Of a stretch of 64,000 nt of DNA, positions 7,618-41,481 are shown piece by piece. The stretch comes from Thermodesulfobacteriota bacterium (GTDB lineage Bacteria; Desulfobacterota; BSN033; WVXP01; G020346125). The notes below the pieces were generated by a model. The model searched no databases and was not told the origin of the DNA. It saw nothing but the letters and a program-made list of their open reading frames with translations. Made by a program: the position numbers and the translations under genes. The stretch covers positions 1,890 to 65,889 of the forward strand of contig JBGVTJ010000317.1 in NCBI GenBank assembly GCA_041862515.1. The letters run 5' to 3'. Numbering within the stretch: position 1 is the first letter of the stretch; every line of letters begins with the position of its first letter.

Positions 7618-8943
7618 TTGATCGGCACTTTTTCAAATATTTTCAAAATTCCCGAGCTGAAGAGGCGCATTATTATCACCTTTCTGCTCTTAGCCGTTTA
7701 TCGGATAGGGGTCCATGTTCCCACACCTGGGATCAATAGCGATGCCCTAGCCGCCTTCTTCGCCCAAGCGCGGGGAACCCTGTTCGGCCTATTCGACATG
7801 TTTACTGGGGGGGCGTTGGAAAGGTTTTCGGTCTTTGCCCTGGGAATCATGCCCTATATCAGCGCTTCTATTATCATGGAACTCTTGTCCGTGGTTATTC
7901 CTTATATCGATCGGTTGAAAAAGGAGGGGGAGTCGGGAAGAAAGAAGATCATTCAATATACCCGTTATGGAACGGTGCTTTTGAGCCTCATCCAGAGTTT
8001 TGGTATCGCGATGGGTCTCAGGCAGATGGAATCTGGGGGCATGCCTGTTGTTATCGACACCAGTTGGACATTCATCCCTATGACGATGATCACCCTCACG
8101 GCGGGGACCGCTTTCATCATGTGGCTGGGAGAGCAGATTACGGAAAGGGGAATCGGCAACGGGATTTCTCTCATCATCTTTGCAGGGATTGTAGCGAGAT
8201 TGCCCGGTGCCTTCGGCAATACCATCCGGCTGATGAGGACGGGGGAGCTACAAGTCTTCATAATACTGGCCATCCTCATGTTTATGGTTGTGGCAGTGGG
8301 GTTTATCATTTTTATGGAGACGGGTCAGAGGCGATTGCCCGTTCAATATGCGAAACGGATCGTGGGACGGAGGATTTACGGGGGGCAAAGCACTCATCTT
8401 CCCTTAAAGATCAATACCTCAGGGGTTATTCCCCCCATTTTTGCCTCATCAATATTGATGTTTCCCCTGACCATAGGTCAGTTCATGCCCAAAGCGTGGA
8501 TGGAAACTTACCCCTGGCTCAATAAGGCCATCAATAGTTTAGGCGGGGGGAGCATCTTATACAACGTCCTCTATGTCACCTTTATCATCTTCTTCTGTTA
8601 TTTTTATACCGCTATCGTCTTCAATCCGGACGATGTTGCTGAAAACATGAAAAAGTTCGGGGGATATATCCCAGGAATTCGGCCCGGGAAAAAAACGGCG
8701 GAATATATAGATCGAATTCTTTCCCGGATCACCTTAGGTGGAGCCCTTTATGTTTCGGCGGTTTGTGTTCTTCCAAGTATCTTGATTCGGAGATTCAACG
8801 TTCCCTTCTATTTCGGTGGGACGGCCTTGCTCATCGTCGTGGGAGTTGCCCTTGATACGGTGCAACAGATCGAATCCCATCTGTTGACGCGACAATACGA
8901 GGGATTGATGAGGAAAGGAAGATTGAGGGTTAGGCGTCGTTGA
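7618..8943 (+). CDS. secY: preprotein translocase subunit SecY
   Basis: 441 aa, 10-TM SecY sequence; spc operon position. Confidence 0.97.
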   Translation: MIGTFSNIFKIPELKRRIIITFLLLAVYRIGVHVPTPGINSDALAAFFAQARGTLFGLFDMFTGGALERFSVFALGIMPYISASIIMELLSVVIPYIDRLKKEGESGRKKIIQYTRYGTVLLSLIQSFGIAMGLRQMESGGMPVVIDTSWTFIPMTMITLTAGTAFIMWLGEQITERGIGNGISLIIFAGIVARLPGAFGNTIRLMRTGELQVFIILAILMFMVVAVGFIIFMETGQRRLPVQYAKRIVGRRIYGGQSTHLPLKINTSGVIPPIFASSILMFPLTIGQFMPKAWMETYPWLNKAINSLGGGSILYNVLYVTFIIFFCYFYTAIVFNPDDVAENMKKFGGYIPGIRPGKKTAEYIDRILSRITLGGALYVSAVCVLPSILIRRFNVPFYFGGTALLIVVGVALDTVQQIESHLLTRQYEGLMRKGRLRVRRR

Positions 8944-19156: not shown

Positions 19157-21307
19157 TTACTTCTCTCTTTTCCCCTCTTTTTCCTTTTCTTCCTGTAAGG
19201 CTTTTTTGGCTCGGTCGAGCTTGAATCTCCTTGAGCTATAAGGGGTCATGCGGGAGGTGAGATTCCACGGGCCGTTGAAACTCTTGCTCTTTTCGGCCGA
19301 TTTCTCCTCCATCCTTGCGATCATCTCCTTCTCCCGTCTTTCCTCTTCCGTCTCATCTGAAATGAACTTCCTTCCTTCCATCTCCTCCAACTCCAGCGGG
19401 TGGTGAAGCTTCATCTCTTCTTCCGAGATCTTCCCGGTAATTTTCGCCCAGTTCATGGGATAGACTTCAGGATCGAACATGACGGAATAGAGGTGCCAGA
19501 CGAGGATGGTCATGCTTGCCAGGATAGCCTCATAGAAATGAATTATCCTGGCCACGTTTACACCCCAACTGGGTAAAAAGAGGCTGAAGATCTTAGGATA
19601 CCAAAGGATGAATCCCGTGAGCGTCATGACTAAGGTTCCCCACAGACCCCCAAAGTATTCGATCTTCTCTATATAGCTGTACCGCCCAAATTTCGGTCGT
19701 TTATTTGATATACCGAGATCATATCCGATCAATTTCAAGGCATCCAGGAGGTCTTGGAAGACGGGGATCAGGGCTATCATGTGGCTCCGCCCTCTTTTGG
19801 TGGATATCATGTACAGGACATGGTAGACGCCGAGGAATACTGTTACCACTCCCGCTATCCTGTGGAGCAGACCCCTCATGGGGCTGGCAGGAGGGTGAAA
19901 GAAAATCCCTACCCACCACGCATCGGGATATTTCAGTGCGAACCCCGTGACCACCAAAACGATAAAGCTTACTGCCAGGACCCCATGTTGAACCCTTTCG
20001 TTAACGGTGAGTCTCTCGTAATACTTGACCCCTTCCCGTTTCCTGACTGCCAGCCACTTCCGGATGAAATCAATCCCCCCGTGGAAGTACATGAAGACGA
20101 TCACGAGGATGATCAGGATAATATAAAATACCCTCACCCAGGAAGCTACCTTGTCCCCGATGGGGCCGGCTCCCGTTGACGGCATAAAATGGACGGGAAA
20201 CATGGCGAAGTTCTCCGAAGCACCCGGGTGACAACTTCCACATGTTTTTACAAGGTTGGACTTATGGATTGTCGACTTTGGATCGCTGGATGGCCGTATA
20301 TCGTGAACCCCATGGCAACTGGCGCAGTTGGCCGCAACCACGTCTCCTCCCTTTCTGGCCAAACCGTGGTAACTATCCAAGTAGGACTTGACCTTGATGG
20401 TGGATACCCCGTATTCCCGGGTGATCCACTCCGCTCCGTGGCATTGGGGACAGGTGGTCATGGCAATCTTCTGTTCCGCAATCGAGGAATCCGGGTCAAC
20501 CTTGGCCTTGATGCTGTGGATACCATGGCAATCGGTACAGACGGGGGATCGTCCCACCCCCTTTTTCGCCGCAAGTCCGTGGACACTTCCCTCATATTCT
20601 CGAAAAGCCTCAGGATGACACTTTCCGCAGGTGGAGCAGACATTTTGACGGGAGATGAGGGATTTTGGGTCTAAGGGACTCTTCAGATTGTGGGGGCTGT
20701 GACAGTCGCTACAGGCAGCAGCTCCCTCAATACCCCTCTTAACGGCACGTCCGTGAACGCTTTCCTTGTAAATCATCCCGGGCAATACCCGATCGGGAAT
20801 TCCCCGGTGTTCCTTCACGAAGGCCACATCGGCGTGGCATCGATCACAGGTCTCCTCCAAATTCAGGGGGTTAACCTTTGACATAATGTGGCCTTGGGGG
20901 TAGACGTAATGATAGCCGTGGCAGTCGGGACACCGAGCCGAATCCACCACACCGCGTTTGACGGCCTCTGCATGGAGGCTCCCCTGGTAAACCTTTTCCA
21001 CTTCCTCATGGCATTGGCCGCAGTTGACCGGTTTGAGCCTCGCGGTATGTTCCGCCTCCATATCCTCCAGATCGGTATGGCAACCTACACATGAGACCTC
21101 TGCATGAACGGAGTTCTCCCAGTTCGCCTTGTCCACATATAAGGAAACCTCCCTTCCTGCATCATCAACCTTAACGAGCCCCTTATCGCTATGGCATTCG
21201 AAACAGAGGCTATCCTCCTTTGCCCAGAGATCCCCAGGAGTGAGGAAACATCCAATGGTCAATAACACCAACGTCAGGACCCGAAATTGTGGTTTTGTCC
21301 TTCCCAT
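19157..21307 (-). CDS. CbcL-like inner-membrane quinol oxidoreductase: periplasmic 11-haem cytochrome c fused to HydC/FdnI-type dihaem cytochrome b, with charged cytoplasmic tail
   Basis: 716 aa; signal peptide, 11 CxxCH motifs, then 4-TM His-rich cytochrome b domain, then glutamate/lysine-rich tail ending ...NGPWNLTSRMTPYSSRRFKLDRAKKALQ. Confidence 0.85.
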   Translation of the reverse strand: MGRTKPQFRVLTLVLLTIGCFLTPGDLWAKEDSLCFECHSDKGLVKVDDAGREVSLYVDKANWENSVHAEVSCVGCHTDLEDMEAEHTARLKPVNCGQCHEEVEKVYQGSLHAEAVKRGVVDSARCPDCHGYHYVYPQGHIMSKVNPLNLEETCDRCHADVAFVKEHRGIPDRVLPGMIYKESVHGRAVKRGIEGAAACSDCHSPHNLKSPLDPKSLISRQNVCSTCGKCHPEAFREYEGSVHGLAAKKGVGRSPVCTDCHGIHSIKAKVDPDSSIAEQKIAMTTCPQCHGAEWITREYGVSTIKVKSYLDSYHGLARKGGDVVAANCASCHGVHDIRPSSDPKSTIHKSNLVKTCGSCHPGASENFAMFPVHFMPSTGAGPIGDKVASWVRVFYIILIILVIVFMYFHGGIDFIRKWLAVRKREGVKYYERLTVNERVQHGVLAVSFIVLVVTGFALKYPDAWWVGIFFHPPASPMRGLLHRIAGVVTVFLGVYHVLYMISTKRGRSHMIALIPVFQDLLDALKLIGYDLGISNKRPKFGRYSYIEKIEYFGGLWGTLVMTLTGFILWYPKIFSLFLPSWGVNVARIIHFYEAILASMTILVWHLYSVMFDPEVYPMNWAKITGKISEEEMKLHHPLELEEMEGRKFISDETEEERREKEMIARMEEKSAEKSKSFNGPWNLTSRMTPYSSRRFKLDRAKKALQEEKEKEGKREK

Positions 21308-21599: not shown

Positions 21600-23123
21600 C
21601 TACGTGCGGGCTTTGACGTGAGATAGATATTCATGATCGTCCTGGACATTGCTGTTTTTTGGTGATCCTCCAGTTTTTCCCCGGAAGCAGTTAGGGTCTG
21701 GTCCAAAGAGGTCTCCGAAGTAGGTGTAGGCACGTGCCCTGCATCCTCCACAGATATCACGGATTGAACAACGCCCGCACCAGCCTCCGATATTCTCCCT
21801 GTTCCTCAGTTTTATCAAGACAGAGTTTTTAGTCCAGACTTCCGCGAGAGTTTTTTCCCGAATATTTCCGATCTTCAATGGAAGCATGTCGCAGGGCCTG
21901 ATAGAACCATCAGGATCAACCGAAAGGAGAGTGATGCCTGCAGAACACCCCTTGGAGAAAAAAGCGGCTCCCGCCTGGATGCGGCCATAGGGGAGGAGCT
22001 TCATTGCTCCCTTGACTAACTGGTTAAAGGAGAATTCCCTCAGTATTCTATCGGCAACGAGTGGGGCCTGGGGAGCCGTCGTCGATATCTCCAGGGGACT
22101 CTCCCCCAAGATCTTACAGCGGGTTTCAGCCATGGTGAGATGGAGCATCTTCCTTCTTTTTTCACCATCCAGATCCAGTTCAACTTCATTACCTCCGCGT
22201 CCGCTGGGAACAAAGTTGAAGATAATGATCCTCTTGCAGCCCAGTTCCTTGGCCATCTGAACGATTGCGGGGATCTCCCGGAAGTTCGCTTGGGTGGCTG
22301 TGATTGAGATTCCCGTGTCCAGACCTACGTCTACTGCATCTTGAATCCCTGCAATGGCCTTTTTCCAGCATCCCTTTCCGCGAAGGAAATCGTGGATTTC
22401 CGGGGAAACTGAATCGACACTGACTTTGACGTAGTCGAGACCAGCTTCCTTTAAGCAGCCAGCATTTTCGCGGGTAAGGAGGGTGCCATTGGTGATGAGA
22501 ACGGTGTAAAGTCCTTTTTGATGGGCCTCGTGAATCATTTCAGGCAAATCGGGAGCAGTCAGAGGCTCGCCGCCGGCAATCATAAGGGCGTTAGATCCCG
22601 CTTCCGCAACTTGCTGGATTAACTCAAGCTTCTCACCTCGGGTTAGTTCGTCTTTCATGGGGTTTTGATCGGCATCCACATGACAGTAAACACAACGAAG
22701 GTTACAGGATCGAGTAATTTCCCATACAAGGATAACCGGTGCCCCTGATGGCTGTGGAGTGGTTGCCCCGAACCGGCTGAATCCTCGAAGATAATTGAGA
22801 ATCAGATGGCGAGTGTGTTTTTCCGACAAGAGCGCCCTGAATACAGGACGGTCCACTCCGAGCCAGCCTCTCGGTATTTCCAAGAGAAATTGATACGCCA
22901 ACACTTCCAGGTAACAGAGCCAAGGAATAGAAATTTTGTTGTCTCCTTTTTCACCATAGTGAGCCATGGCCCTTTCCAGGTGATTGTCGCGACAGAGAGT
23001 GCATCGAGAGCTGGAGCTTCTCAAAAAGGACCGGAAAAGGGGGAAACCCGCCAACCGCTGTAAGCGTTCAATTGTCCCGAGGGTTGGGGTCGAGTAAAAG
23101 GACCGATTGGAGGATATTTTCAT
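21600..23123 (-). CDS. radical SAM / SPASM-domain enzyme with ~150-aa N-terminal extension (peptide or cofactor maturase, function unknown)
   Basis: 507 aa; CNLRCVYC (Cx3Cx2C) at ~res 155, C-terminal SPASM Cys cluster CGRCSIRDICGGCRARAY; N-terminal extension could be an RRE-like domain. Confidence 0.8.
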   Translation of the reverse strand: MKISSNRSFYSTPTLGTIERLQRLAGFPLFRSFLRSSSSRCTLCRDNHLERAMAHYGEKGDNKISIPWLCYLEVLAYQFLLEIPRGWLGVDRPVFRALLSEKHTRHLILNYLRGFSRFGATTPQPSGAPVILVWEITRSCNLRCVYCHVDADQNPMKDELTRGEKLELIQQVAEAGSNALMIAGGEPLTAPDLPEMIHEAHQKGLYTVLITNGTLLTRENAGCLKEAGLDYVKVSVDSVSPEIHDFLRGKGCWKKAIAGIQDAVDVGLDTGISITATQANFREIPAIVQMAKELGCKRIIIFNFVPSGRGGNEVELDLDGEKRRKMLHLTMAETRCKILGESPLEISTTAPQAPLVADRILREFSFNQLVKGAMKLLPYGRIQAGAAFFSKGCSAGITLLSVDPDGSIRPCDMLPLKIGNIREKTLAEVWTKNSVLIKLRNRENIGGWCGRCSIRDICGGCRARAYTYFGDLFGPDPNCFRGKTGGSPKNSNVQDDHEYLSHVKART

Positions 23124-24083: not shown

Positions 24084-25010
24084 GTGCAGCAGGAAAAGGG
24101 GGAGCATGGAGAGTGGCAAAAACCGACTAAGCCGTTATGTGGAGGAAACGAGTTGAAAATAAGAGATATCATGACGGAAAATCCCATCACCGTGGACCGC
24201 GAGACTTCCATTTTAGAGGCTATGGGGATTATGAAGGAGAACAACATTCGACGGCTCCCCGTAGTCGATAAGGGTAGACTGGTTGGGATGGTTACTGAAA
24301 GGATGATCTTGGAGGCTTTTCCCTCTCCGGCCATGTCGTTGTCGATTCACCAAGTCCGTTATCTTATAGAGACGGTGATGGTGAAGGATATCATGGTCAA
24401 AAACCCCATTACCATTCCTCCGGGTGCGAATTTTAAAGATGTACTACTCTTGTGTCATGAGAAAAGGATCTGCAGTTTCCTGAGTTTCTAGGGAGCACCG
24501 CTACTCATGAGCGATATTTACCGGAGAAGGGTCACATCAGAACAGGCCGTTGCCCGGGTTCCCTGGAGCGAACATTAAAGAATTTTGGCTACCCATTCTT
24601 AGGGAAGCGAAACGACCGCAAATCCATTGTCTGAGCCCAGAGGGCGAGTTTTGGATTTGCAGTGAAGCGAACTGTAGAATGGTCCAAAATTCTTTTCAGT
24701 GAGCGAAAGGGAATTTGGGCAACAGACCCGAGCAACCGGAGGGACAACGGTGTTCACTTATGAGAAATATAATCGCATTTATAATCAATAGGTTATAAGA
24801 ATCCCATCCAAAAAACTCAGGAAACTTCAGAAAAGGACCGGGGCCCTTCCCGTTGTGGACAAAGGAAAATTGGTAGAGATTGCCACCGAATCCGAAATCT
24901 CTCACCGTTGGTGCGAAGGGGTGGGTCGCCGTCAAACAACCGCTTGCCCCATGGGTTTTGGAAATCAGCGGCGTGCGACGGCGAGGAGGCAAATAAGAGC
25001 ACGAAAATAA
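24084..25010 (+). pseudogene. CBS-domain pair protein gene interrupted in frame by a ~360-bp MITE-like insertion (5' part 24084..24491 ends in a stop inside the insertion; 3' part resumes at ~24830 in the same frame)
   Basis: 5' ORF has CBS1 (IRRLPVVDKGRLVGMVTE) and truncated CBS2 ...LLCHEKRI|; downstream in the same frame ...QKRTGALPVVDKGKLVEIATESEI... completes CBS2; duplicated EKR codons flank the insertion. Confidence 0.65.
24469..24831. mobile_element. MITE-like non-autonomous element (~360 bp) with 19-21-bp imperfect terminal inverted repeats and ~8-10-bp target-site duplication
   Basis: Left end (TC)TGCAGTTTCCTGAGTTTCT; reverse complement of right end (TC)TGAAGTTTCCTGAGTTTTT (17/19, 19/21); flanking direct repeats GAAAAGGATC / GAAAAGGACC; no internal ORF; internal GAAGCGAA-type repeats. 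Confidence 0.7.
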
Positions 25011-25047
25011 TTGCAATGAGGAAAAACTTCAGAGTGGACTTTCTCAT
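24817..25047 (-). CDS. possible small secreted protein (uncertain; overlaps 3' remnant of CBS gene on opposite strand)
   Basis: MRKSTLKFFLIAIIFVLLFASSPSHA|ADFQNPWGKRL... convincing signal peptide, but overlaps the + strand CBS remnant. Confidence 0.3.
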   Translation of the reverse strand: MRKSTLKFFLIAIIFVLLFASSPSHAADFQNPWGKRLFDGDPPLRTNGERFRIRWQSLPIFLCPQREGPRSFSEVS

Positions 25048-25161
25048 GTTCCAATATTGGCAGAGTTGAACAAGATTCATCAGAAATAAAAATCATGGAA
25101 TAATCCGACTCTTTCGACTACCGTTAGGAGTTTGTTCGGAGGGACATTTTGGAAATACTTC

Positions 25162-25401
25162 TTATCTCGCCACCCTTACATTGGCCGCCCGGAAACCTTT
25201 AGGCCCCTTCTTCAACTTGAACTCCACATTGATACCGCTTTCCAAGACCTCGAAATCCTCTCCGTGCAGAGCGGAGTGATGGAAGAAGACATCCTCCCCA
25301 TTTTCCGTCTTGATGAAACCGAAACCCCGGAACCGGATAAGGCTCTTTATCTTACCTTTCAAACCTTTCATCTCCTTCCTTAAAGCATCTATTAGCTTCA
25401 A
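25162..25401 (-). CDS. cold-shock domain protein (CspA family)
   Basis: 79 aa; RFRGFGFIKTENGEDVFFHHSAL... CSD RNP motifs; ATGA-coupled to upstream STAS gene. Confidence 0.8.
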   Translation of the reverse strand: MKLIDALRKEMKGLKGKIKSLIRFRGFGFIKTENGEDVFFHHSALHGEDFEVLESGINVEFKLKKGPKGFRAANVRVAR

Positions 25402-25745
25402 TTTTGCCCTTCTAAGAGTCGAACGGCTTCCTTTGGATCATTTGTATGGCAAAATAGATCAAGAGTCTTAGAGGTTCTGAGTACCCTCTTCGCTGTTTCC
25501 TGCAAATTGAGCAGTATCAGATCTCCCCCCTTACTCCTGAGTATATTCGTCAATGAAAGAAGGACCTTAATTCCAGCACTGCTCAAAAAAGTGACACCTG
25601 AGCATTCAAGGATGATCTTTGTAGTTCTTCTCAATATTGGTTCAAGGCAGTCCTCTAGTTGCGACGCATAATAGGAATCTAGTCTTCCCTTTACTTTGAT
25701 GAGGTGAATGTCGTGTTCTTTGAGATATGAAATATCAAGATCCAT
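25398..25745 (-). CDS. second STAS-domain anti-sigma-factor antagonist (paralogue of 16788..17156)
   Basis: 115 aa; HLIKVKGRLDSYYASQLEDCL...GVTFLSSAGIKVLL closely parallels HLVKLEGRLDANFSSQLEDEI...EVTYLSSSGLRVLL. Confidence 0.85.
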   Translation of the reverse strand: MDLDISYLKEHDIHLIKVKGRLDSYYASQLEDCLEPILRRTTKIILECSGVTFLSSAGIKVLLSLTNILRSKGGDLILLNLQETAKRVLRTSKTLDLFCHTNDPKEAVRLLEGQN

Positions 25746-25825
25746 AGCTATAGCTATCTACCTCTTTCTATCGGGCATTTCGAGCATTAAAAGCCTCTAT
25801 TTTAGGTGAGGGCTGGCTGAGCATA

Positions 25826-26101
25826 CTAAACCTGGCTGTCAAGACCATCAGCCCCCCTCTTTAAACGGTAAATCAGATCGCCAGAGTCATCATCGTTTTC
25901 TGCCCCCATAATTCTTTCTACTAACCCTTTGACGCTGAGATACTCCAGCCTCTCTGAAATTTCTTCTTTAGTTGTGCGCCCCTTCAATGCGTCGTCTTCA
26001 CCACATTCGTACCAGAGCTGCGAAAGGTTCAAATGTTCATAGAGGGAAAGGATCCGTAAGATATTTCGGTCAATTGTGTCTAATCTATTCTTTCTTTCCA
26101 T
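25826..26101 (-). CDS. hypothetical small protein, possible winged-helix regulator
   Basis: 91 aa ORF; DTIDRNILRILSLYEHLNLSQLWYE HTH-like segment; acidic C-terminus. Confidence 0.5.
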   Translation of the reverse strand: MERKNRLDTIDRNILRILSLYEHLNLSQLWYECGEDDALKGRTTKEEISERLEYLSVKGLVERIMGAENDDDSGDLIYRLKRGADGLDSQV

Positions 26102-26471
26102 TGGGATATTTCAATTGTTTTTGGAAATTCTCCACTCGTGCAAGTGTTAGTGACAACAAAGCCTTCACGTCAGGGAGAAAAATTGAGCATTGATAGACGG
26201 TTACTTTCCAACCGGGTCTGGCTATTCAGAGTTCACATTCTTCCAGGGTTCTTTCCTTTCAGATGTTAAGTATATGTTAACGACTATTAGGTGTAAATAG
26301 AAAAATAATTCGCTATGGACGTTAGGAACAGAGATCGTCCCTCGTGGCTGAGATAGGTGTAGTGCGGAAGTCTGGATATAAAGAGGTGAGGCTTTAGCCT
26401 AGTCAGTGGATGTTTTCAAAACCGAAAAGCCGGAACAATCCTTTCAGACACCTACAAGCCAGAGAGAAAAG

Positions 26472-26509
26472 GTTGCATCTTTGGTTCAACTTGCCCAAAG
26501 GTGTGCAAC
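26472..26509. terminator. hairpin (GTTGCA...TGCAAC stem) flanked by T-runs on both strands; probable terminator of the 26527..29190 gene
   Basis: GTTGCAtctttggttcaacttgcccaaaggtgTGCAACTTTTT on +; CTTTTCTCTCT follows on the - strand, 18 nt after that gene's stop. Confidence 0.45.
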
Positions 26510-26526
26510 TTTTTCAGAAAATTACT

Positions 26527-29190
26527 TCACGTGGGAGTCCTCAAGGATGCAAAAAGCAGAAGATAGACTGCACCATAGATACCCAAGAGGATTGCGTGGT
26601 AGGAGAAGATGTGGGAATTCCCCGGGGACCCGGTTGTCTCGCGCTCCATTGCTTGGATCTTGTACAGGATGTAGAGGGCCCATCCGATTCCGATGATGGT
26701 CAAAACAATCTGTACCGCCCATATGAGGTTTATGGTGATGATGGTAGATGAACTCTCTGTCCCGGCCGCAAATGGGATCTTAATCAACTGTAATGTCAGG
26801 CCGCTGCCCCCCGGCACATAGCGAAGATGATTGGCAAAATGACCACAGAGGGCCAGGGGGATAAAGGCGAAGCTGTAGCGGGTAACGTTCGTATCCGTTC
26901 CCGTTTTTTCTGCATCCCGATAGAAGACCAACCGGGGAAACTCCACGAGGAATAAGGAAAAGAAAACGATAATAACGAGGAGGATTGTGTAACCTTGGTC
27001 GGGAGTCAACCTTGGAAAGGGAAAAGCGGACTCAAGGAACAATCCAAATTGGGGCAAATCCGGCAAGATTTCCACAAACAGGAGGCTCGCCAGAAGGAGT
27101 GAAAAGAATGCTCCTCCTTTAACAGGTTTCGTTTGCGTCCATATCTCTTGTCCCGGCACACGCAAATTCAACTGGACCGACCTGTAAGGACAGTTTTGGA
27201 TGCAGTAGGTACAAACCCGGCAGCTCTGGTTATCTTCCAGGAAAAGGGGGTGGCGAAACATAGGGCATCCATAGGTCTTTCCCCCTTTGAAACATTCGTG
27301 GGTTTTGCACTCATTGATACAAACGTTGGTATTAGCTCGCACTTCCAGAATGGAGGCCATCGCATAGATTCCGCACATATTGCCAAGGGCACAGATGTAC
27401 CGACACCAGACTTTTCTTTCGAAGATGAGGCTGAAAATAATAGCTCCTAACGTAATGGATAGTAAGACGAACCCGGTAGGCAAGGGGAATTCACGGGCCC
27501 TCGTCACCTTCTCCAACCAGAGGATAAGCACGAAGAGAAAGGCGGGTAACCAGAGTTCCGTCCGCTTCAAGATTCCCGGGAGTTTCCGTTGAAGGCTGAA
27601 AAACCTCTGGATAAATCCTGAGACGGTCCCGATTGGACAGATAGCGCACCAGCTTCTGGCGGAGAAGAAGGAAAGGAGAAAGAGGCTCGGCCACCAAAGG
27701 GACAAGACCAGGATGTTGCCGATATTGTCCCCGCTTCCCCTCGGACCGAAGAAGAGCGAGTAAGATATGAAAACGAATACCACAACCGTGAAAGCACGGA
27801 CCAGATAGGGGTACATGCTGCTCTGGAAGTATCCTCGAACTAATGTGTTTCTGAGCAGGTTGTACTTTCCCCTTCCCTCAATGGAGGGAAGTCCCAGATA
27901 GATCTGATCGGGTACAATGGTATGCCCCTCGGTCAGGACGACGGCCCGTTCCACCACTTCTTCGAGTTCACCGACATTACCCGGGTATTGGTACGTGAGG
28001 AGGAGGTTCATCGCATCCGTTGAAACCCTTGGAATGGTCTTTCCCATTTGCCGAGCCGATTTTTGGGCGAAATGCTCAACCAATTCGGATATATCCCGTT
28101 TCCGTTTCCGCAAGGGGGGAACTTCGATATCAATACCCTCAAGTTGGTCCAGGAGTCCCTTGGAAAATGTTCCCCGTCTTGCCATTTCGGCGAGATCCAT
28201 CTCTGTAGTCGCGATCACCCGGACATCCGTCGAAAGCGTGTCCCCACCTCCAAGCCGTCGAAACTGTTTCCTCTCCATGAAGTCCGCCAACAGCCTCTGA
28301 GTGTCGTAAGGGAGCCTATCAACATTCTTCATGAGAAGAGTTCCCTTGTCGGCCAATTCCAGATAACCCAATCTCCGAGCGGTTGCCGTGGTAAAAGCCC
28401 CTCTTTCATATCCCACCAGCTCGGATCCCCAGGCCTCCCTCTTCAGCAATTCGCAATTGATGACGATGAATGGCTCCTCTTTTCTCTCCCCCTGATAGTG
28501 GATTGTGCGAGCCATCAATTCCTTGCCCGTTCCCCTCTCCCCCCGAATGAGGACGGGGTAGGAATTTGTGGAGGCCTTGCTCACGAGCTCCAAGACGGAA
28601 CGCATCTTCTTTGAACTGCCCACGGGACGGCTGTACCGAAACTCCTGTTCTTGACGGAGAAATCGGTTGAAGGCGACCTCCTTATCCCTGGCCTCTTCGA
28701 TCTGCTCATTAACCTTACGGATGCGCTGAGAGAGGATCGTAATGAAATGTCGATTAATGCCCGGATTGTCCTGTAATACCTCATCAAAATGCATTTTATA
28801 GAGGACCAGGACCTCCGTATCTTCAACCGCCTTGGTAGTAACTCCGCTCGGCTCGCCAGTTAATAATGACATCTCCCCAAAATAATCTCCAGTATGGTAG
28901 TCGGCGAGGATGATTTCCGCCCCCTCAACGTTGACCTCGATGGCCTGGACGTGCCCCTTCTTGATGATGTAGAGGCAGGCTACAGGAAGGTCCTTTTTGG
29001 TGATAAAAAGACCTTTAGGAATGTCTTCTACGAAAAGCCGTGAGGCTACCTTTTCCCTGGCCTCATGGGATATATCTTTAAATAAGCTAATCCCTTTAAG
29101 GAAATAGGCCAATTCCTTATTCTCGTTTTCCTGTAAGAATCTGTTAGGGGGTTGTTCAGTGGATTCCACCATATACTTATTCCCGAACAA
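26527..29190 (-). CDS. novel fusion: cNMP-binding domain + sigma-54-activator-type AAA+ domain (GAFTTA, Walker B DE->KN, no HTH) + NapH/MauN-type polyferredoxin membrane domain with two [4Fe-4S] motifs
   Basis: 887 aa; GDYFGEMSLLTGEPSGVTTKA (cNMP); GERGTGKE...GYERGAFTTATARRLGYLELADKGTLLMKNVD (EBP AAA+); ~10 TM helices with WCAICP and WCRYIC motifs, CINECKTHEC and CRVCTYCIQNCP ferredoxin motifs; no Fis-type HTH. Confidence 0.8.
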   Translation of the reverse strand: MFGNKYMVESTEQPPNRFLQENENKELAYFLKGISLFKDISHEAREKVASRLFVEDIPKGLFITKKDLPVACLYIIKKGHVQAIEVNVEGAEIILADYHTGDYFGEMSLLTGEPSGVTTKAVEDTEVLVLYKMHFDEVLQDNPGINRHFITILSQRIRKVNEQIEEARDKEVAFNRFLRQEQEFRYSRPVGSSKKMRSVLELVSKASTNSYPVLIRGERGTGKELMARTIHYQGERKEEPFIVINCELLKREAWGSELVGYERGAFTTATARRLGYLELADKGTLLMKNVDRLPYDTQRLLADFMERKQFRRLGGGDTLSTDVRVIATTEMDLAEMARRGTFSKGLLDQLEGIDIEVPPLRKRKRDISELVEHFAQKSARQMGKTIPRVSTDAMNLLLTYQYPGNVGELEEVVERAVVLTEGHTIVPDQIYLGLPSIEGRGKYNLLRNTLVRGYFQSSMYPYLVRAFTVVVFVFISYSLFFGPRGSGDNIGNILVLSLWWPSLFLLSFFSARSWCAICPIGTVSGFIQRFFSLQRKLPGILKRTELWLPAFLFVLILWLEKVTRAREFPLPTGFVLLSITLGAIIFSLIFERKVWCRYICALGNMCGIYAMASILEVRANTNVCINECKTHECFKGGKTYGCPMFRHPLFLEDNQSCRVCTYCIQNCPYRSVQLNLRVPGQEIWTQTKPVKGGAFFSLLLASLLFVEILPDLPQFGLFLESAFPFPRLTPDQGYTILLVIIVFFSLFLVEFPRLVFYRDAEKTGTDTNVTRYSFAFIPLALCGHFANHLRYVPGGSGLTLQLIKIPFAAGTESSSTIITINLIWAVQIVLTIIGIGWALYILYKIQAMERETTGSPGNSHIFSYHAILLGIYGAVYLLLFASLRTPT

Positions 29191-33743: not shown

Positions 33744-34400
33744 CTATTTGAACCTCTTCTCGCCACAGCGTATAGCCGTATCCAAGGTATTCTCGTCATT
33801 TGCATAGGGGCACGTGTACTTCGGGTTATAAGCACAATAAGGATTGGAGGCCTTATTGAAATCGATAATAACACGTTTCTCCCCTACACATTCCACCTCT
33901 AAATATCGCCCATTTTCATAGGTTTCCAAACCGTTGGTCTTATCCTTGAAGGGAAGAAAGAAATTGGGCCTCCCCAAGTGTCGGTAGATTGTGAGGACGA
34001 ATTCTCGACCGTCAATGCTAAATCTGAATTTTCCCTCTTTGACATATTTCCGAAAATTACCCTTGCTGGTGGGAAGGTTGATGTATTCGGTGCGGCCTTT
34101 GGGGTTCCTTTCGATCTCTCCCGTGAACACATATCGGAAATCTATGGGATAGTAGTCCAGTTTTTTGAAATCGATGATATCCTGAGCTCTCAGTGGGGAC
34201 TTGGGGTTTTCCTTAAAAAATCGGTCTTTTTCGACCCTCTCCTCCTCGATCTCTTTCTGCCTGGATTGGAGCAGATTTGAATCAAACTCCTCGGTTAAAG
34301 CCAGAACCTGAAGAGGGAGAATGAGATTTGTCCCTACCAAAAGGTATTTTATCCACTTTTTCCCGGTTCCTCCGCTTTTTTTCGGCTTTTTCAATACCAT
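33744..34400 (-). CDS. secreted DUF1684-like protein, paralogue A (family assignment tentative)
   Basis: 218 aa, signal peptide; shares RDRFFKE..SPL, YYPID, IPFRDKTNG, TYEGGRYL, DFNxAxNPxCxYN with 40846..41481. Confidence 0.7.
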   Translation of the reverse strand: MVLKKPKKSGGTGKKWIKYLLVGTNLILPLQVLALTEEFDSNLLQSRQKEIEEERVEKDRFFKENPKSPLRAQDIIDFKKLDYYPIDFRYVFTGEIERNPKGRTEYINLPTSKGNFRKYVKEGKFRFSIDGREFVLTIYRHLGRPNFFLPFKDKTNGLETYENGRYLEVECVGEKRVIIDFNKASNPYCAYNPKYTCPYANDENTLDTAIRCGEKRFK

Positions 34401-34796: not shown

Positions 34797-36947
34797 TTAT
34801 TCCTTCTTGCCCAGCATAGGTTCTATCTGATCTAGATTCTTCTTGGCAGCCTCGATCAGTTCCGCTGCATACTCCAGGTTATGGACCCCTTTACCCTCTC
34901 CCACCAGACTAATATTGTATTCGGCATCTCCGAACAATTTGGTAAAGGCGAAGGTGTGCTGTCCCCTTTTCTCCAATCTTTGGATATGTTCCTTTATCCT
35001 TTTCAGCTTTGAAGAGGTTCTCTTGAGCAATTCATCCGCCGTTGACTTCCAATCTTCGGCCATCTTCCCGTAACTTTCATCATGGCACTTGATGCAGGTG
35101 GCCCTGATGGCCTTGAAGGATTCCTTCTGTCCTTCAGCGATACTGCGGTGGCAATCCACGCATTCCACCACATCGACTTTGATGCTGGGTAGGTCTTCGA
35201 CACCGATGCCAGTTTTCCCGGAAAAAAGCCTTTTTACGCTCAGGTGACAATCCCCACACGCTACCTTTCCCGCCCCATCGCCATGGTGGCACTCAGCGCA
35301 ATTCTTCAAGTACGTTTTGCCATGGTTCTCCCTGGGGGAGTGACAGTTGCGGCATTGCAAATCCATCCCCATGTGGACATCATGGGGGAATTGGATCTCA
35401 TTGAAGGGAACGGTACGTCGCTCTAACCCCACGTGGCAAAGGCTTGTACACGTATATTCCGTTTTATACTCCTTGAGCTGATACCCGTCCTCGATGAGGG
35501 TCAGGGCCTTTTCCATATTATTGTTGGCATGGTTCAAGAGCTTCAGAGCGTATTCGATGTTGTGAACCCCCTTGCCCATGAGGGAAAACGTATAGTTGTA
35601 CCTGGCCTCGTTGATAAGATTTTGGGCTTTCTTGAAGCGTTGACCCTCCAGCCCCGCTTTACCCGCTTCGTATAGCTTCTTTTGAGCATTAAATATTCGG
35701 CTGTTGACCTCATTCTCCGCCTTAACTAGGAGCTCCTTCCAATGGAAGAGCATCTCGTCGTAACCCTCCCCATGACATCCCACGCAGGACTCGGCTAAGG
35801 CCCTTTCCGAATATTTTGTCGTATATAAAGCCGCCTTGCTCTCCTCTCGGGTTTTGTGGCATCCCACACAATCCACTCTGATGGTGAACATCTTGCTCGG
35901 TGAATCGGTGACACCGATCCCTCCGATTCCCGTGTACATCTCCTTAGGTCCCCTATGCATCTGTTCTATATGACAGTGATTACAACTCTCCGTAAACTTC
36001 GCCATGGTGGGCATTTCCCCGACTTCGTGTCTTATTTCGGTGTGACATCGATAGCATTCGATTTTGTGATCGGTGACGTGCATTCGATGGGTAAATTCCG
36101 ATGTATATTTCGTCGCGAGAAGATTGGGCTCATTATGGCACTCCAGGCACTTATTCTCAGGGACGTGGCCATCGCCTTTATTGTGGCCTACGTGGCACTC
36201 AAGACAGCTCACTCCCCGCTCGATGTATCGCTTGTGGTTGAAGCTTATCCCCTTGACCGAGAGTTCGCCCTTTGGCTGGATATGGCATGCACCACATTCC
36301 GCGCAGGAGAGGCAATCCTCTTCACCCAGAGTTCCTGCCTTATAGAAGTGACAGATGAAGCAGTCCGTTTCCGTAACGGTTAAATGAGCGCCTTGAACGA
36401 TTTGGGCGTGGCACGTAGTACAGCGCAGTTTCTTCCCCCTTCTCAACTCCTCCAGATGTTTTCCGTGGTCAAAGGCCACGTTCTTGAAGACCATTTTTTC
36501 CTTTAAATCCTCACTGCGGTGACATCCCTTCTGAAGACAGCTGGCGTCACTGATCTCCGCATGAGGCATAGTCGGCCCTTTGCCGGTGATAAACATGACC
36601 AGGGAAACCTGTCCATCCTTCCATTTTCCCTTCAAATGGTTGAAAAAGCCGGGTTCATAATGACATCCGGCACAGGGAACGAAGTTGTGGGTGGACGTCT
36701 TCCAGGAATCTACGTACACCTTCATGTTATGGCAGAGATTGCAGAAGGTAGGAGTTTCGGTGAATTTGTACATAGTCCCAGCCAGAAATATCAGGATGAA
36801 AAGACAGATGCCGAGGAACAGGGTGACCCCCTTCTTGTGTTCCTTCGTCCCCCGGTAGGTCTCCTTCCAAAAGGAGATCCAGAAGTTAGAGACGTATTTA
36901 AACAGATCACCTAAGGTCCTAAATCCACGTCTGATTAAGCTTCCCAT
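34797..36947 (-). CDS. NapC/NirT-family membrane-anchored multihaem cytochrome c (~17-18 haem motifs)
   Basis: 716 aa; N-terminal TM then CNLCHNMKVY (NapC/NirT signature), ~16 CxxCH plus CX4CH (CLQKGCH) and CX3CH (CTSLCH) motifs. Confidence 0.85.
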   Translation of the reverse strand: MGSLIRRGFRTLGDLFKYVSNFWISFWKETYRGTKEHKKGVTLFLGICLFILIFLAGTMYKFTETPTFCNLCHNMKVYVDSWKTSTHNFVPCAGCHYEPGFFNHLKGKWKDGQVSLVMFITGKGPTMPHAEISDASCLQKGCHRSEDLKEKMVFKNVAFDHGKHLEELRRGKKLRCTTCHAQIVQGAHLTVTETDCFICHFYKAGTLGEEDCLSCAECGACHIQPKGELSVKGISFNHKRYIERGVSCLECHVGHNKGDGHVPENKCLECHNEPNLLATKYTSEFTHRMHVTDHKIECYRCHTEIRHEVGEMPTMAKFTESCNHCHIEQMHRGPKEMYTGIGGIGVTDSPSKMFTIRVDCVGCHKTREESKAALYTTKYSERALAESCVGCHGEGYDEMLFHWKELLVKAENEVNSRIFNAQKKLYEAGKAGLEGQRFKKAQNLINEARYNYTFSLMGKGVHNIEYALKLLNHANNNMEKALTLIEDGYQLKEYKTEYTCTSLCHVGLERRTVPFNEIQFPHDVHMGMDLQCRNCHSPRENHGKTYLKNCAECHHGDGAGKVACGDCHLSVKRLFSGKTGIGVEDLPSIKVDVVECVDCHRSIAEGQKESFKAIRATCIKCHDESYGKMAEDWKSTADELLKRTSSKLKRIKEHIQRLEKRGQHTFAFTKLFGDAEYNISLVGEGKGVHNLEYAAELIEAAKKNLDQIEPMLGKKE

Positions 36948-37124
36948 AGTCCCCTCTTATGTTAGTGAAGATGAATCAAATTCCTCCTATCCAGAATTTT
37001 CCTGGGTTTCAATCCCCCATGATTTATCTTGACCGGATCGTTAAGATAATGTAGTTAACTACATTTGTCAACGGATTTTTCCGAATTCTTTCGTCTATGT
37101 GGAGCGTTTGGTGAGGTGTAGGAG

Positions 37125-38732
37125 ATGGAACTGAAATTCGTCGTGTGGCCGTTGGTGGGCTCATTTTTCCTTTTGACTATTGGTTCCCACGCCGCAAAAG
37201 GGGCTCAGCAAAGGCGTGATTTGACCATTGTTTACACCAACGATGTCCTCGGCGAAATTGAGCCCTGTGGATGATTTAAAAACCCCCTTGGCGGTGTCGC
37301 CAAGAAGGCAACGATAATCAAGGGGATGAAGGAGGAGGGGAGAAACCTCCTAGTGGTTGACGCCGGGAATATGCTCTTTCGAAAGCCCCCAACTTCTCAA
37401 GAGCGGAGAAAAGAAGCCCTGTTGAAGGTTAACGTCCTCCTCAGAGCGTATGAAGAGATGGGCTATTCCGCCGTCAACATAGGGGAGAAGGATTTAACCT
37501 TGGGCCTTGGATTCTTGGGTGAGGTAGCGAGAAGAACGAAGTTCCCCTTCATTTCAGCAAACTTGATCGACAAAAAAAGTCGAAAGACCGTTTTCAGGCC
37601 CTTTATAACGGAGGAGATCGCGGGAATAAAGGTCGGCGTAATCGGGTTGATGGGCCGTTGGGTCAATGAGGTGCTTAAGGAAAAAGAGCCATATTTGGAG
37701 GTTCTGGATCCCCTTGACGCGGGTAAACCCTATGTGACGGAGTTACGGAAAACCTGTGACCTCGTCAGCGTGCTATCCCAACTAGGGGAGCGGGGCGATA
37801 GGGAATTAGCCTTGAAGGTCCCTGGCATCGATATTATCGTCGGGGGGAAGCGGGGTAAGAGGATTAGGTATTCGAAGATCAGAGAGACCCTCATGTACCG
37901 CCTGGAACCCCGTGGGGGGTATTTGGGGAAGCTGGATTTATCTCTGGCCCGAAAAGGCAAGCCGCTAAACCTAACCGATTATGAACAAAGGGAGCGCATT
38001 GTTAAGAAAATGGAGACCATCCAGAAGCGATGGATGGAAATAAAGAGCGAAATAGAAGGGGACAGCGGAAAATCTCCCTCCAAGAGGGAGGTGAGAGTGA
38101 AGGAACTGGCTATCCTGGAAAGAAGGGGAATGGAACTCCAACTGCGCCTAGTGGACTTCGACCAGAGGAATCTCTATAAGAATGAGGTCATCCCCATCAA
38201 GTTGGCCATCCCAGATGATCCGGTTATCGGCGAGATGATTGATGGATACGGGATAGAGGTGGCAAAGCTCTATGGAATTGAGCGAACCCTTGAGAGAGGC
38301 CCGGGAAAACCCCCATCCGATGCTCAAATTTTGGCCGGCATCTCGAAGAGCAGTTCTTACCAGGGGGCGATCTCGTGTAAAAAATGCCACAGACGAAATT
38401 TCGAAGCCTGGTCCACTACCGAACATGCCAAAGCGACCCAGACGATATCTGAGGCTTTCAAAAAGGGGCGGCCGTTGGAGGATTGTCTCATCTGCCATAC
38501 GACCGGTTATGGGGATATCAGGGAATATCGGTTTGTACAAGAGGTTCCCCTTTATCTTCGGGGGGTACAGTGCGAGGCTTGCCACGGGGTGGGAAAAGGG
38601 CACCCGGGGTTTGGAGCCAAATTCAGGAGGGTCACCTTAGGGGTCTGCCGCAACTGCCATACGAAGGATCAATCTCCTGCCTTTCACTACAAGAGCTATC
38701 TGCTCCGAATCGGCTGCACCATTCGGAAATGA
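37125..38732 (+). CDS. candidate selenoprotein: signal peptide + degenerate metallophosphatase/5'-nucleotidase-like domain with Cys-Gly-Sec (TGA at 37272..37274) + C-terminal tetrahaem cytochrome c
   Basis: ATG 37125 with AGGAG RBS; MELKFVVWPLVGSFFLLTIGSHAAKG...LTIVYTNDVLGEIEPCG-TGA-FKNPLGGVAKKATIIKG... continuous in the same frame into the 37326..38732 ORF; SECIS-like hairpin 12 nt after TGA; CKKCH, CLICH, CEACH, CRNCH at C-terminus. Confidence 0.6.
37287..37304 (+). ncRNA. SECIS-like stem-loop (CUUGGCG-GUGU-CGCCAAG) 12 nt downstream of in-frame UGA
   Basis: Perfect 7-bp stem, GU-containing tetraloop, spacing similar to E. coli fdhF SECIS (~11 nt). Confidence 0.5.
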
Positions 38733-40845: not shown

Positions 40846-41481
40846 CTATTCGAATTTCTTCTCCCCGGCCTTAATCTCCAAGTCGAAATTATTCTCCTCC
40901 GGAGGAATGATACAGATAAACTTCTCGTTATAAACACAGGAGGGGTTGTAGGCCATATTGAAGTCGAGGATCGTTCTATAACCCGGCATGATGATTTCTG
41001 CATCCAGGTAGCGTCCTCCCTCGTAGGTTCCATCTCCATTGGTCTTATCCCTGAAGGGGATGAAGAGGTGGTCGCTCCCGGGGGATTTATAGAGCTGAAT
41101 AGTGAATTCCTTGCCATTGATCTGAAATCGGAACCTTCCGTATCGAATGTATCTCTTCTTTATTCCCTTGTTGGTTAGGAAATTGGCGTAGTATTTCGGG
41201 TTCATGATGTGGTACTTATATCGTTCGATGTTTCCCTCGAGGCGATACTTCAGGTCAATGGGATAATAAGCCAACCCTTTAAAGTTACTACGGTGTGAAT
41301 CATCCAAAGGTGACCGAGAATGTTCCTTAAAAAATCGGTCCCTCCCCTCCCTAAAGTCCCTGATGCGCTGAATGTTCTGTTGGTCGGGTTTCTCCAGAGG
41401 ATGACCCAGTGCGCTCCAAAGGGATGTGATCATAAGAAGAAGGACCCCGGTGAAAAGCTTTGAGCCTAATCTCGCAACCAT
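40846..41481 (-). CDS. secreted DUF1684-like protein, paralogue B (family assignment tentative)
   Basis: 211 aa; signal peptide; conserved blocks shared with 33744..34400. Confidence 0.7.
   Translation of the reverse strand: MVARLGSKLFTGVLLLMITSLWSALGHPLEKPDQQNIQRIRDFREGRDRFFKEHSRSPLDDSHRSNFKGLAYYPIDLKYRLEGNIERYKYHIMNPKYYANFLTNKGIKKRYIRYGRFRFQINGKEFTIQLYKSPGSDHLFIPFRDKTNGDGTYEGGRYLDAEIIMPGYRTILDFNMAYNPSCVYNEKFICIIPPEENNFDLEIKAGEKKFE

Follow-up and report, generated by a model that had tools for sequence, protein, structure and literature searches.

A stretch of 64,000 nucleotides (nt) from a Thermodesulfobacteriota bacterium (GenBank assembly GCA_041862515.1, contig JBGVTJ010000317.1, positions 1,890–65,889; termed here the window) carries a forward-strand reading frame at 37125–38732 that is interrupted by an in-frame TGA codon at 37272–37274. 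This raises the question of whether the TGA terminates a short peptide or is read as selenocysteine (Sec) and, if the latter, what type of protein results. A first reading of the sequence (the original prediction) proposed a novel selenoprotein with a C-G-U motif. The analysis described here indicates that the locus is very probably one gene for a periplasmic UshA-like selenoprotein, in which the UGA would be decoded as Sec by way of a downstream hairpin, the Sec residue would form a redox centre, and the haems of a fused cytochrome domain would connect it to the quinone pool. The gene is, however, not novel: it is a typical representative of NF041198, a family that has already been catalogued and curated.

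The recoded coding sequence is complete, with 535 codons that specify 534 residues including Sec50, and its own stop codon is a TGA at 38730–38732. The ATG at 37125 is the earliest possible start, with an in-frame TAG at 37119–37121. A GAGG lies 8 nt upstream of this ATG, and an AGGAG abuts it, which is a poor spacing for a ribosome-binding site. The first 23 residues, MELKFVVWPLVGSFFLLTIGSHA (37125–37193, forward strand), have the n/h/c pattern of a predicted signal peptide of the secretory (Sec) type, and homologues have comparable N-termini. In the translation of 37125–38732 the signal peptide is followed by LTIVYTNDVLGEIEPCG. The sequence EIEPCG-TGA spans 37260–37274, of which the motif P47-C48-G49-U50 occupies 37263–37274, and the frame then stays open up to 38730–38732. 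Thus the start codon, signal peptide, 5′-nucleotidase-like N-terminus, in-frame TGA, hairpin and four CxxCH motifs named in the original prediction are all found in the sequence and its translation. A six-frame scan of the window shows no other convincing in-frame TGA junction between open segments.

Mechanical calling of open reading frames (ORFs) reports 37326–38732 alone, a product of 468 amino acids (aa) that starts at the ATG at 37326 and has no signal peptide. A tetrahaem protein would be expected to need such a peptide if it is to be exported and loaded with haem, and the four CxxCH sites of the 468-aa product could therefore presumably not mature in the periplasm.

Relatives of the gene show a Sec/Cys pair at the motif position. 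Among 143 distinct relatives examined, the codon is TGA in 115 and TGC or TGT in 28, all the latter having the form PCGC. Whether homologues have Cys in place of the TGA had been put forward as a check on the original prediction, and the proposal of a selenoprotein gene is upheld by these counts and by the hairpin discussed below. A scan of genomes, one per species, returned 80 loci, which span the Thermodesulfobacteriota/‘Deltaproteobacteria’, Myxococcota, Planctomycetota/Brocadiia, Krumholzibacteria, Acidobacteriota, Nitrospirota, Gammaproteobacteria and others. The motif was identifiable in 62 of these, 34 with TGA and 28 with TGC/TGT, and the variants are PCGC (28 loci), PCGU (27), PAGU (five), PSGU (one) and PCAU (one). 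Metagenomes scanned with the pattern G-E-x-E-P-C-G-TGA yielded at least 120 stretches, and most of the 118 matches examined read on in frame into xxxxLGG(L/V)A(K/R)(K/R)AT. In addition, the 49 codons before the TGA are conserved as protein among relatives.

Searched against 5.8 billion proteins, the query had 390 matches. Nearly all of the 120 listed begin just past the TGA, with 87% query coverage, as expected when gene callers stop at a Sec codon. An 88%-identical orthologue (L201–L203) has been called as two ORFs of 49 and 468 aa (positions 7800–7949 and 8001–9407 of L201). Public calls for the family are systematically truncated or split in this way, and carry labels such as ‘hypothetical protein’, ‘5′-nucleotidase’ and ‘2′,3′-cyclic-nucleotide 2′-phosphodiesterase’. 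The value of the finding for annotation lies here, in that most public calls for the family lack both the signal peptide and the reactive PCGU motif.

A few full-length homologues with Arg at the Sec/Cys position are also present (DPSGR in P0028, P0034 and P0045; EPCER in P0031). Some are also without Cys48, and P0031 additionally has CEARH instead of one CxxCH motif. Such genes may have degenerated, may contain sequencing errors, or may form a subgroup that has diverged in function. The pattern scan also matched an unrelated sequence, EDQGIRKRGEMEPCG followed by a stop, ISR, a further stop and GSGE, which contains several stops and is found on at least nine contigs (L093, L104, L117, L127, L145, L160, L174, L184 and L191). 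Its recurrence suggests a repeated non-coding or mobile element.

The hairpin CUUGGCG-GUGU-CGCCAAG (37287–37304, forward strand) begins 12 nt past the TGA and consists of a 7-bp stem and a GUGU loop. The G and U of the loop are nt 23 and 24 counting from the U of the UGA, and the loop G lies within 16–37 nt of the UGA, as for the bacterial selenocysteine insertion sequence (SECIS) criterion. In the SECIS of Escherichia coli fdhF, G23 and U24 in the GGUC loop are the determinants of SelB binding. The window hairpin shares with the fdhF element the distance of about 12 nt past the UGA and the apical G23-U24, and many family members have the GGUC loop as well, but the window stem is shorter and has no obvious bulged U. 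A SelB site here is putative.

The 22-nt hairpin piece has a folding energy of −11.6 kcal/mol, and none of 200 dinucleotide shuffles is as stable (z −4.1). The same hairpin has the minimum free energy (MFE) when the 39 nt that start at the UGA are folded (−13.4 kcal/mol; 6 of 200 shuffles as good). For comparison between genes, the best uninterrupted hairpin was scored that has a loop start 17–38 nt from the U of the UGA and a G among the first two loop bases, and the null was formed by 300 versions of each gene, with the same peptide and with codons resampled from the gene's own usage. None of the 300 resamplings equals the window stem, whose loop starts at nt 23. The 115 TGA genes have a median stem of 7 bp and a median score of 18, where 12.2 is expected (median z 1.86; p ≤ 0.05 in 46%), whereas the 28 Cys genes have a median stem of 5.5 bp and a median score of 13, where 12.7 is expected (median z 0.1; p ≤ 0.05 in 11%). 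The scores of the TGA genes are the higher (Mann–Whitney p = 1.5e-8), it being understood that these sequences are related and that the p-values are not independent-sample probabilities. A hairpin 22–32 nt downstream thus beats synonymous resampling in TGA genes and does not do so in Cys genes.

The position of the loop is also conserved. Of the 115 TGA genes, 86 have a loop start at nt 22/23 and a further 21 at nt 31/32, whereas loop starts are scattered in the Cys genes. Most loops of the nt-22/23 group are GGUCUG or GGUC(U), in place of the GUGU of the window. When 56 in-register sequences are aligned, 77.6% of cells are paired, a value that none of 500 column shuffles reaches; the unslid register is best, and compensatory pairs are found at 16–33 (CG/UA) and 18–31 (UA/GC). 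Compared with the 88%-identical orthologue there are no changes in the 42 nt past the TGA, but six synonymous changes in the ten codons before it. The clustering of loop positions, the covariation and the unchanged orthologue sequence show that the SECIS-like hairpin described in the original prediction is conserved in relatives, and it is absent as an enrichment from the Cys genes.

The decoding of the UGA at 37272–37274 as Sec is thus strongly supported, the insertion of selenium itself being what we infer from these comparisons. The hairpin would be the recoding signal, and would present G-U at 23–24 nt from the UGA as in the fdhF SECIS.

It should be pointed out that several results weigh against this interpretation. 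Gene, family and RNA searches detected no selA, selB, selD or tRNA-Sec within the 64-kb window. Rfam searches were negative for SECIS and for any other RNA family, both near the TGA (at a permissive E-value) and window-wide (at gathering thresholds). In contexts of 63–81 nt, a competing fold between CCCCUUGG and CCAAGGGG rivals the small hairpin and at 81 nt is slightly preferred, but it is the small hairpin and not this longer helix that is the conserved structure. Whole-region MFE z-scores (60 nt) barely separate Sec from Cys genes. In addition, the literature places the UshA-like family with those that are computationally predicted and not experimentally verified, and no experimental work on any member was found there.

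Read-through without Sec, either by reassignment of UGA to Trp or Gly or by near-cognate suppression, is hardly credible: alternative codes exist in some uncultured bacteria but nothing specific favours one here, 11 of 31 well-supported window genes, the recoded gene among them, end normally with TGA, which excludes a reassigned code, homologues without the TGA have Cys at the position and never Trp or Gly, and a position-specific hairpin accompanies the TGA. Only slightly less improbable is that the TGA is a real stop, the locus then being a pseudogene, the site of a sequencing error, or the source of a separate 49-aa peptide and a 468-aa protein from the ATG at 37326. This is the arrangement given by mechanical ORF calling, the public gene calls of orthologues are split likewise, and the searches for Sec machinery in the window are in keeping with it. 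However, 115 distinct sequences, drawn from many samples and many phyla, have this same TGA in the same frame and motif, and 28 others have Cys there; the 49 upstream codons are conserved as protein; and a hairpin is enriched only past the TGA forms. None of this agrees with a real stop. Nor would a signal-less 468-aa product be expected to mature its haem sites.

With the UGA read as Sec, the family to which the protein belongs is readily found. The read-through protein, with U written as C, scores 420.4 bits against the NCBIfam model NF041198 (‘UshA_like_PCGU’), the cutoff being 275, and the match extends end to end, with residues 14–523 on positions 5–519 of the 519-position profile. NF041198 is an equivalog termed ‘UshA-like (seleno)protein’ that covers both the phosphatase-like and the cytochrome domains. 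Its features are all present, i.e. P-C-G-U past the first β-strand, a 5′-nucleotidase-like N-terminal domain and a CxxCH-rich C-terminal domain, and the window protein is identical to the family in architecture. Models for UshA, CpdB, SoxB and NadN match weakly (E-values from 1e-17 to 1e-6) and fall far under their cutoffs. A second model, NF049981 (‘UshA-like (seleno)protein family 2’), shares the 5′-nucleotidase-like N-terminal block and a Sec near motif I, but it differs in its CxxU spacing and its 262-position profile; here the match is again weak (55 bits against a cutoff of 140, residues 33–122) and spans only the first 89 profile positions.

The family has been listed for some time. The GOS selenoproteome study assigns 76 Sec and 92 Cys sequences to ‘COG0737, UshA-like, CxU’, and counts it among previously characterised families (Zhang and Gladyshev, 2008; PMC2398784). 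It is also in Table 1 of two later papers (PMC9312934, 2022; PMC13188914, 2026), the second of which cites both NF041198 and NF049981. There is no mention of it in the Olavius symbiont paper (PMC1976440). The full-length, above-cutoff match and the listings since 2008 refute the description of the selenoprotein as novel, and the ‘new redox module’ that had been envisaged is not supported either, its architecture being already curated in NF041198. The value of the locus as a discovery is consequently small: family, CxU motif and fused architecture are known, and the NCBI annotation pipeline has a model. In relation to the NF041198 descriptions, two properties were not found described, the neighbourhood of CbcL-like, NrfH-like and DUF1684 genes and a Cys at position 531, which is His in most members.

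The phosphatase-like domain is encoded at 37221–38294 (forward strand). A PDB sequence search, an AlphaFold2 (AF2) model of a homologue and Foldseek assign to it the 5′-nucleotidase/calcineurin-like (metallophosphatase) fold. The PDB search matches residues 27–242 to 2z1a (E = 3e-17), and also finds snake-venom enzymes, 5h7w, CD73 and UshA. In the AF2 model of the full-length homologue P0031, the predicted local distance difference test (pLDDT) score is 80–94 in the core of the fold, which contains a long two-helix (helical-hairpin) insertion; Foldseek ranks E. coli UshA and CD73 highest for this model (E about 1e-20), and its search of the PDB gave nothing but 5′-nucleotidases. With 5′-nucleotidase, UshA, CD73, CpdB and SoxB the window protein shares the fold of residues ~30–390 and the framework motifs TND..., LEP, GGVA(K/R) and DAG. 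It differs from them in that the metal ligands are replaced and a cytochrome domain is fused, and no C-terminal substrate-binding (nucleotide-binding) domain of the 5′-nucleotidase type was detected by sequence; Pfam and NCBIfam nucleotidase matches end near residue 290.

Alignment to the solved 5′-nucleotidases 2z1a and 5h7w bears out the substitution of metal ligands. Canonical NDTH is NDVL in the window protein, DAGD is DAGN, GNHE is GEKD, SHLG is SQLG and GGH is GGK, with changes of H to L, D to N, N to E, H to K, H to Q and H to K. Of the canonical residues visible in the alignment only the motif-I Asp, D39 in NDVL, is retained, and it is not conserved family-wide, and the catalytic motif set of 5′-nucleotidase/UshA/CpdB (DxH, GDxxD, GNH[DE], H, GHxH) was not found. 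The PCGU loop takes the place of the one that joins the first strand to the GGVA(R/K) helix. Among 69 non-redundant members, the only positions of the domain conserved at ≥85% are G43, P47, C48, G49, U/C50, G56, G57, R/K60, G81, A116, G127 and G264. P47, G49 and U/C50 are conserved at 98–100% (U/C50 at 100%) and C48 at 94%, and variants without Cys48 (PAGU, PSGU) occur only with Sec, which marks Sec as the essential residue.

Since only the P-C-G-U/C loop and the framework are conserved family-wide, the fold can be looked at as a scaffold and the loop as its functional site. The lost phosphoesterase metal site, judged by this conservation, apparently marks a re-purposed reactive site and not a dead one. 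The earlier suggestion that the domain is probably non-catalytic is not supported, P-C-G-U/C being the most conserved feature of the domain across phyla. N82, E121, K122, D123 and Q219 were considered as a remodelled active site and rejected, as they are conserved in the close clade only and not family-wide.

The C-terminal part of the protein is a tetrahaem cytochrome c554-type domain (38355–38729, forward strand), with CxxCH sites at 38376–38390, 38484–38498, 38571–38585 and 38646–38660 in the translation. The only Pfam match to the recoded protein is Cytochrome_C554 (PF13435; 54.8 bits against a gathering threshold of 20.8, E = 1.9e-14, residues 417–488), which signifies membership at the domain level only. 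The cytochrome c554 structure 1bvb also matches the haem domain (E = 7e-8). PF13435, 1bvb and Foldseek together confirm the fusion of a 5′-nucleotidase-like domain to a four-CxxCH cytochrome. All four CxxCH motifs are invariant in the family, as are H434 and H493, two candidate distal ligands. Position 531 (38715–38717), four residues from the C-terminus, is His in 43 of the 69 non-redundant members; the window clade and several other clades have Cys instead. With no more than two other His residues invariant outside the CxxCH motifs, against a total of four haems, position 531 looks like a distal ligand, and it may be one that switches between His and Cys.

Genes of electron transfer proteins adjoin the UshA-like gene. 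A multihaem cytochrome c of 716 aa with an NrfH/NapC-type N-terminus (34797–36947, reverse strand) is divergent from it, and is adjacent in ten related loci and in L201 and L202; a match in L061 is arranged differently. Convergent with the UshA-like gene is a gene for a 640-aa CbcL-like protein with a periplasmic multihaem domain and a membrane cytochrome b of the b561/FdnI/HydC type (MFB0508297.1; 38742–40664, reverse strand), so that the CbcL-like neighbour of the original prediction is indeed present. It is kept in 12 related loci, with 52–68% identity by tblastn, and in L201–L203. DUF1684 genes, also part of the conserved neighbourhood, are found in ten related loci by tblastn, usually directly upstream of the UshA-like gene and on the same strand. 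The window has two DUF1684 paralogues that flank the cytochrome cluster, one at 33744–34400 and the other at 40846–41481, between DsbD and the CbcL-like gene (both reverse strand). To our knowledge, the DUF1684 domain has no known function. Synteny with the closest orthologues covers 17 kb, and the CbcL/NrfH/DUF1684 arrangement is also kept in more distant clade members (L011, L013, L014 and L071), often with a Rex-like regulator nearby. DsbD was considered as a functional partner and rejected, since it is syntenic in the closest orthologues only. No description of the clade's conserved cluster with quinol-oxidising cytochromes was found in the literature searched.

The clade-conserved CbcL, NrfH and DUF1684 neighbours point to a quinol-linked periplasmic redox enzyme in which Sec is the reactive centre. 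Sec50, assisted by Cys48, would be the catalytic redox centre, with Cys48-Gly-Sec50 on the loop past the first β-strand of a metal-free phosphatase fold. The four haems would link the Sec to the quinone pool via the two neighbouring cytochromes, the CbcL-like bc and the NrfH-type multihaem protein, and the selenoprotein would act at the end of a periplasmic, quinol-linked chain as its terminal reductase (or oxidase). Two points detract from this proposal. The neighbourhood is limited to the Thermodesulfobacteriota-type clade and is not family-wide; UshA-like genes of other phyla neighbour LptD, HU and response regulators. Also, the parts of the P0031 model that bear on Sec–haem geometry, the motif loop and the haem domain, have a pLDDT below 50.

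The best functional analogue of the window protein is MccSep, a five-haem selenoenzyme that is the polysulfide reductase of Geobacter sulfur respiration, in which a Cys ligates a haem and the Sec is catalytic (PMC13510729, 2026). MccSep/ExtKL (GSU2937-2936; PMC13510729) and the window protein are both periplasmic multihaem c-type cytochromes with one Sec inserted, or predicted to be inserted, by an in-frame UGA and a SECIS; they also have in common Sec/Cys-type homologues, a split into two ORFs in annotations, and occurrence in Desulfobacterota. ExtKL is listed under Pfam Cytochrome_C554 in a 2022 review (PMC9312934). However, MccSep belongs to a different family, NF040886, has five haems as opposed to four, has its Sec in ...DGUPT... 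near the C-terminus, and has no phosphatase-fold domain. The NF040886 model gives no match to the window protein at E ≤ 0.01, and the protein has four CxxCH motifs where that family has five. The activity of MccSep has been demonstrated, whereas the window protein is known from sequence.

MccSep also provides a precedent for a different role of the motif. Perhaps Sec is inserted, but Sec50 and/or Cys48 are axial haem or metal ligands, as in MccSep or enzymes of the [NiFeSe]/formate dehydrogenase (FDH) type, and not a selenenylsulfide pair. With two invariant candidate distal His residues and the alternating His/Cys position 531 for four haems, at least one haem has no conserved distal ligand within the cytochrome domain. 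The motif sits where the ancestral fold bound metals, and Cys48 is dispensable when Sec is present. On the other hand, cytochrome c554 itself contains a five-coordinate haem, so the missing ligand need not come from another domain, and the P0031 model is of low confidence at the motif loop. A ligand role is thus a possibility to be taken seriously, if not the likelier one, and the redox centre formed by Sec50 with Cys48 is the preferred interpretation.

As to the substrate of such a centre, the leading guess, by analogy with MccSep and SoxB, is a small chalcogen species such as polysulfide or S0, selenite, or a compound of the thiosulfate type; that it should be polysulfide in particular is rather doubtful. 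The linkage to quinol-oxidising cytochromes leads to the hypothesis of a second Sec-dependent periplasmic respiratory enzyme, in which the modest biological value of the locus lies. Tentatively, and with the odds somewhat against it, the clade module of CbcL-like protein, 716-aa NrfH-type cytochrome, DUF1684 protein and selenoprotein might constitute an undescribed quinol-linked periplasmic respiration, with the selenoprotein as its catalytic terminal subunit, a Sec(-Cys)/haem site on a metal-free phosphatase scaffold, a His-to-Cys switch of a haem ligand at position 531, and an inorganic chalcogen or oxyanion that is reduced or oxidised. If so, it would be a second and structurally unrelated solution to the chemistry shown for MccSep.

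Other genes in the window can be noted. The same contig encodes RpoA (MFB0508275.1). A second CbcL-like protein of 716 aa, with a multihaem part and an FdnI-type cytochrome b, is encoded at 19157–21307 (reverse strand) and has ~30% identity to the first. Adjoining it at 21600–23123 (reverse strand) is a gene for an AhbD/NirJ-like radical SAM/SPASM protein that falls below all equivalog cutoffs. The gene at 26527–29190 (reverse strand) encodes a sigma-54 activator of 887 aa, which has a cNMP-binding domain at its N-terminus and a membrane/Fer4_5 region at its C-terminus. In L201 and L202, the 88%-identical orthologues, this gene keeps its synteny with the cytochrome cluster. The 2.2 kb at 24334–26527 contain small ORFs only, including a CspA-like ORF of 79 aa (25162–25401, reverse strand) and one of 115 aa (25398–25745, reverse strand) that by eye resembles STAS/anti-sigma-antagonist proteins.

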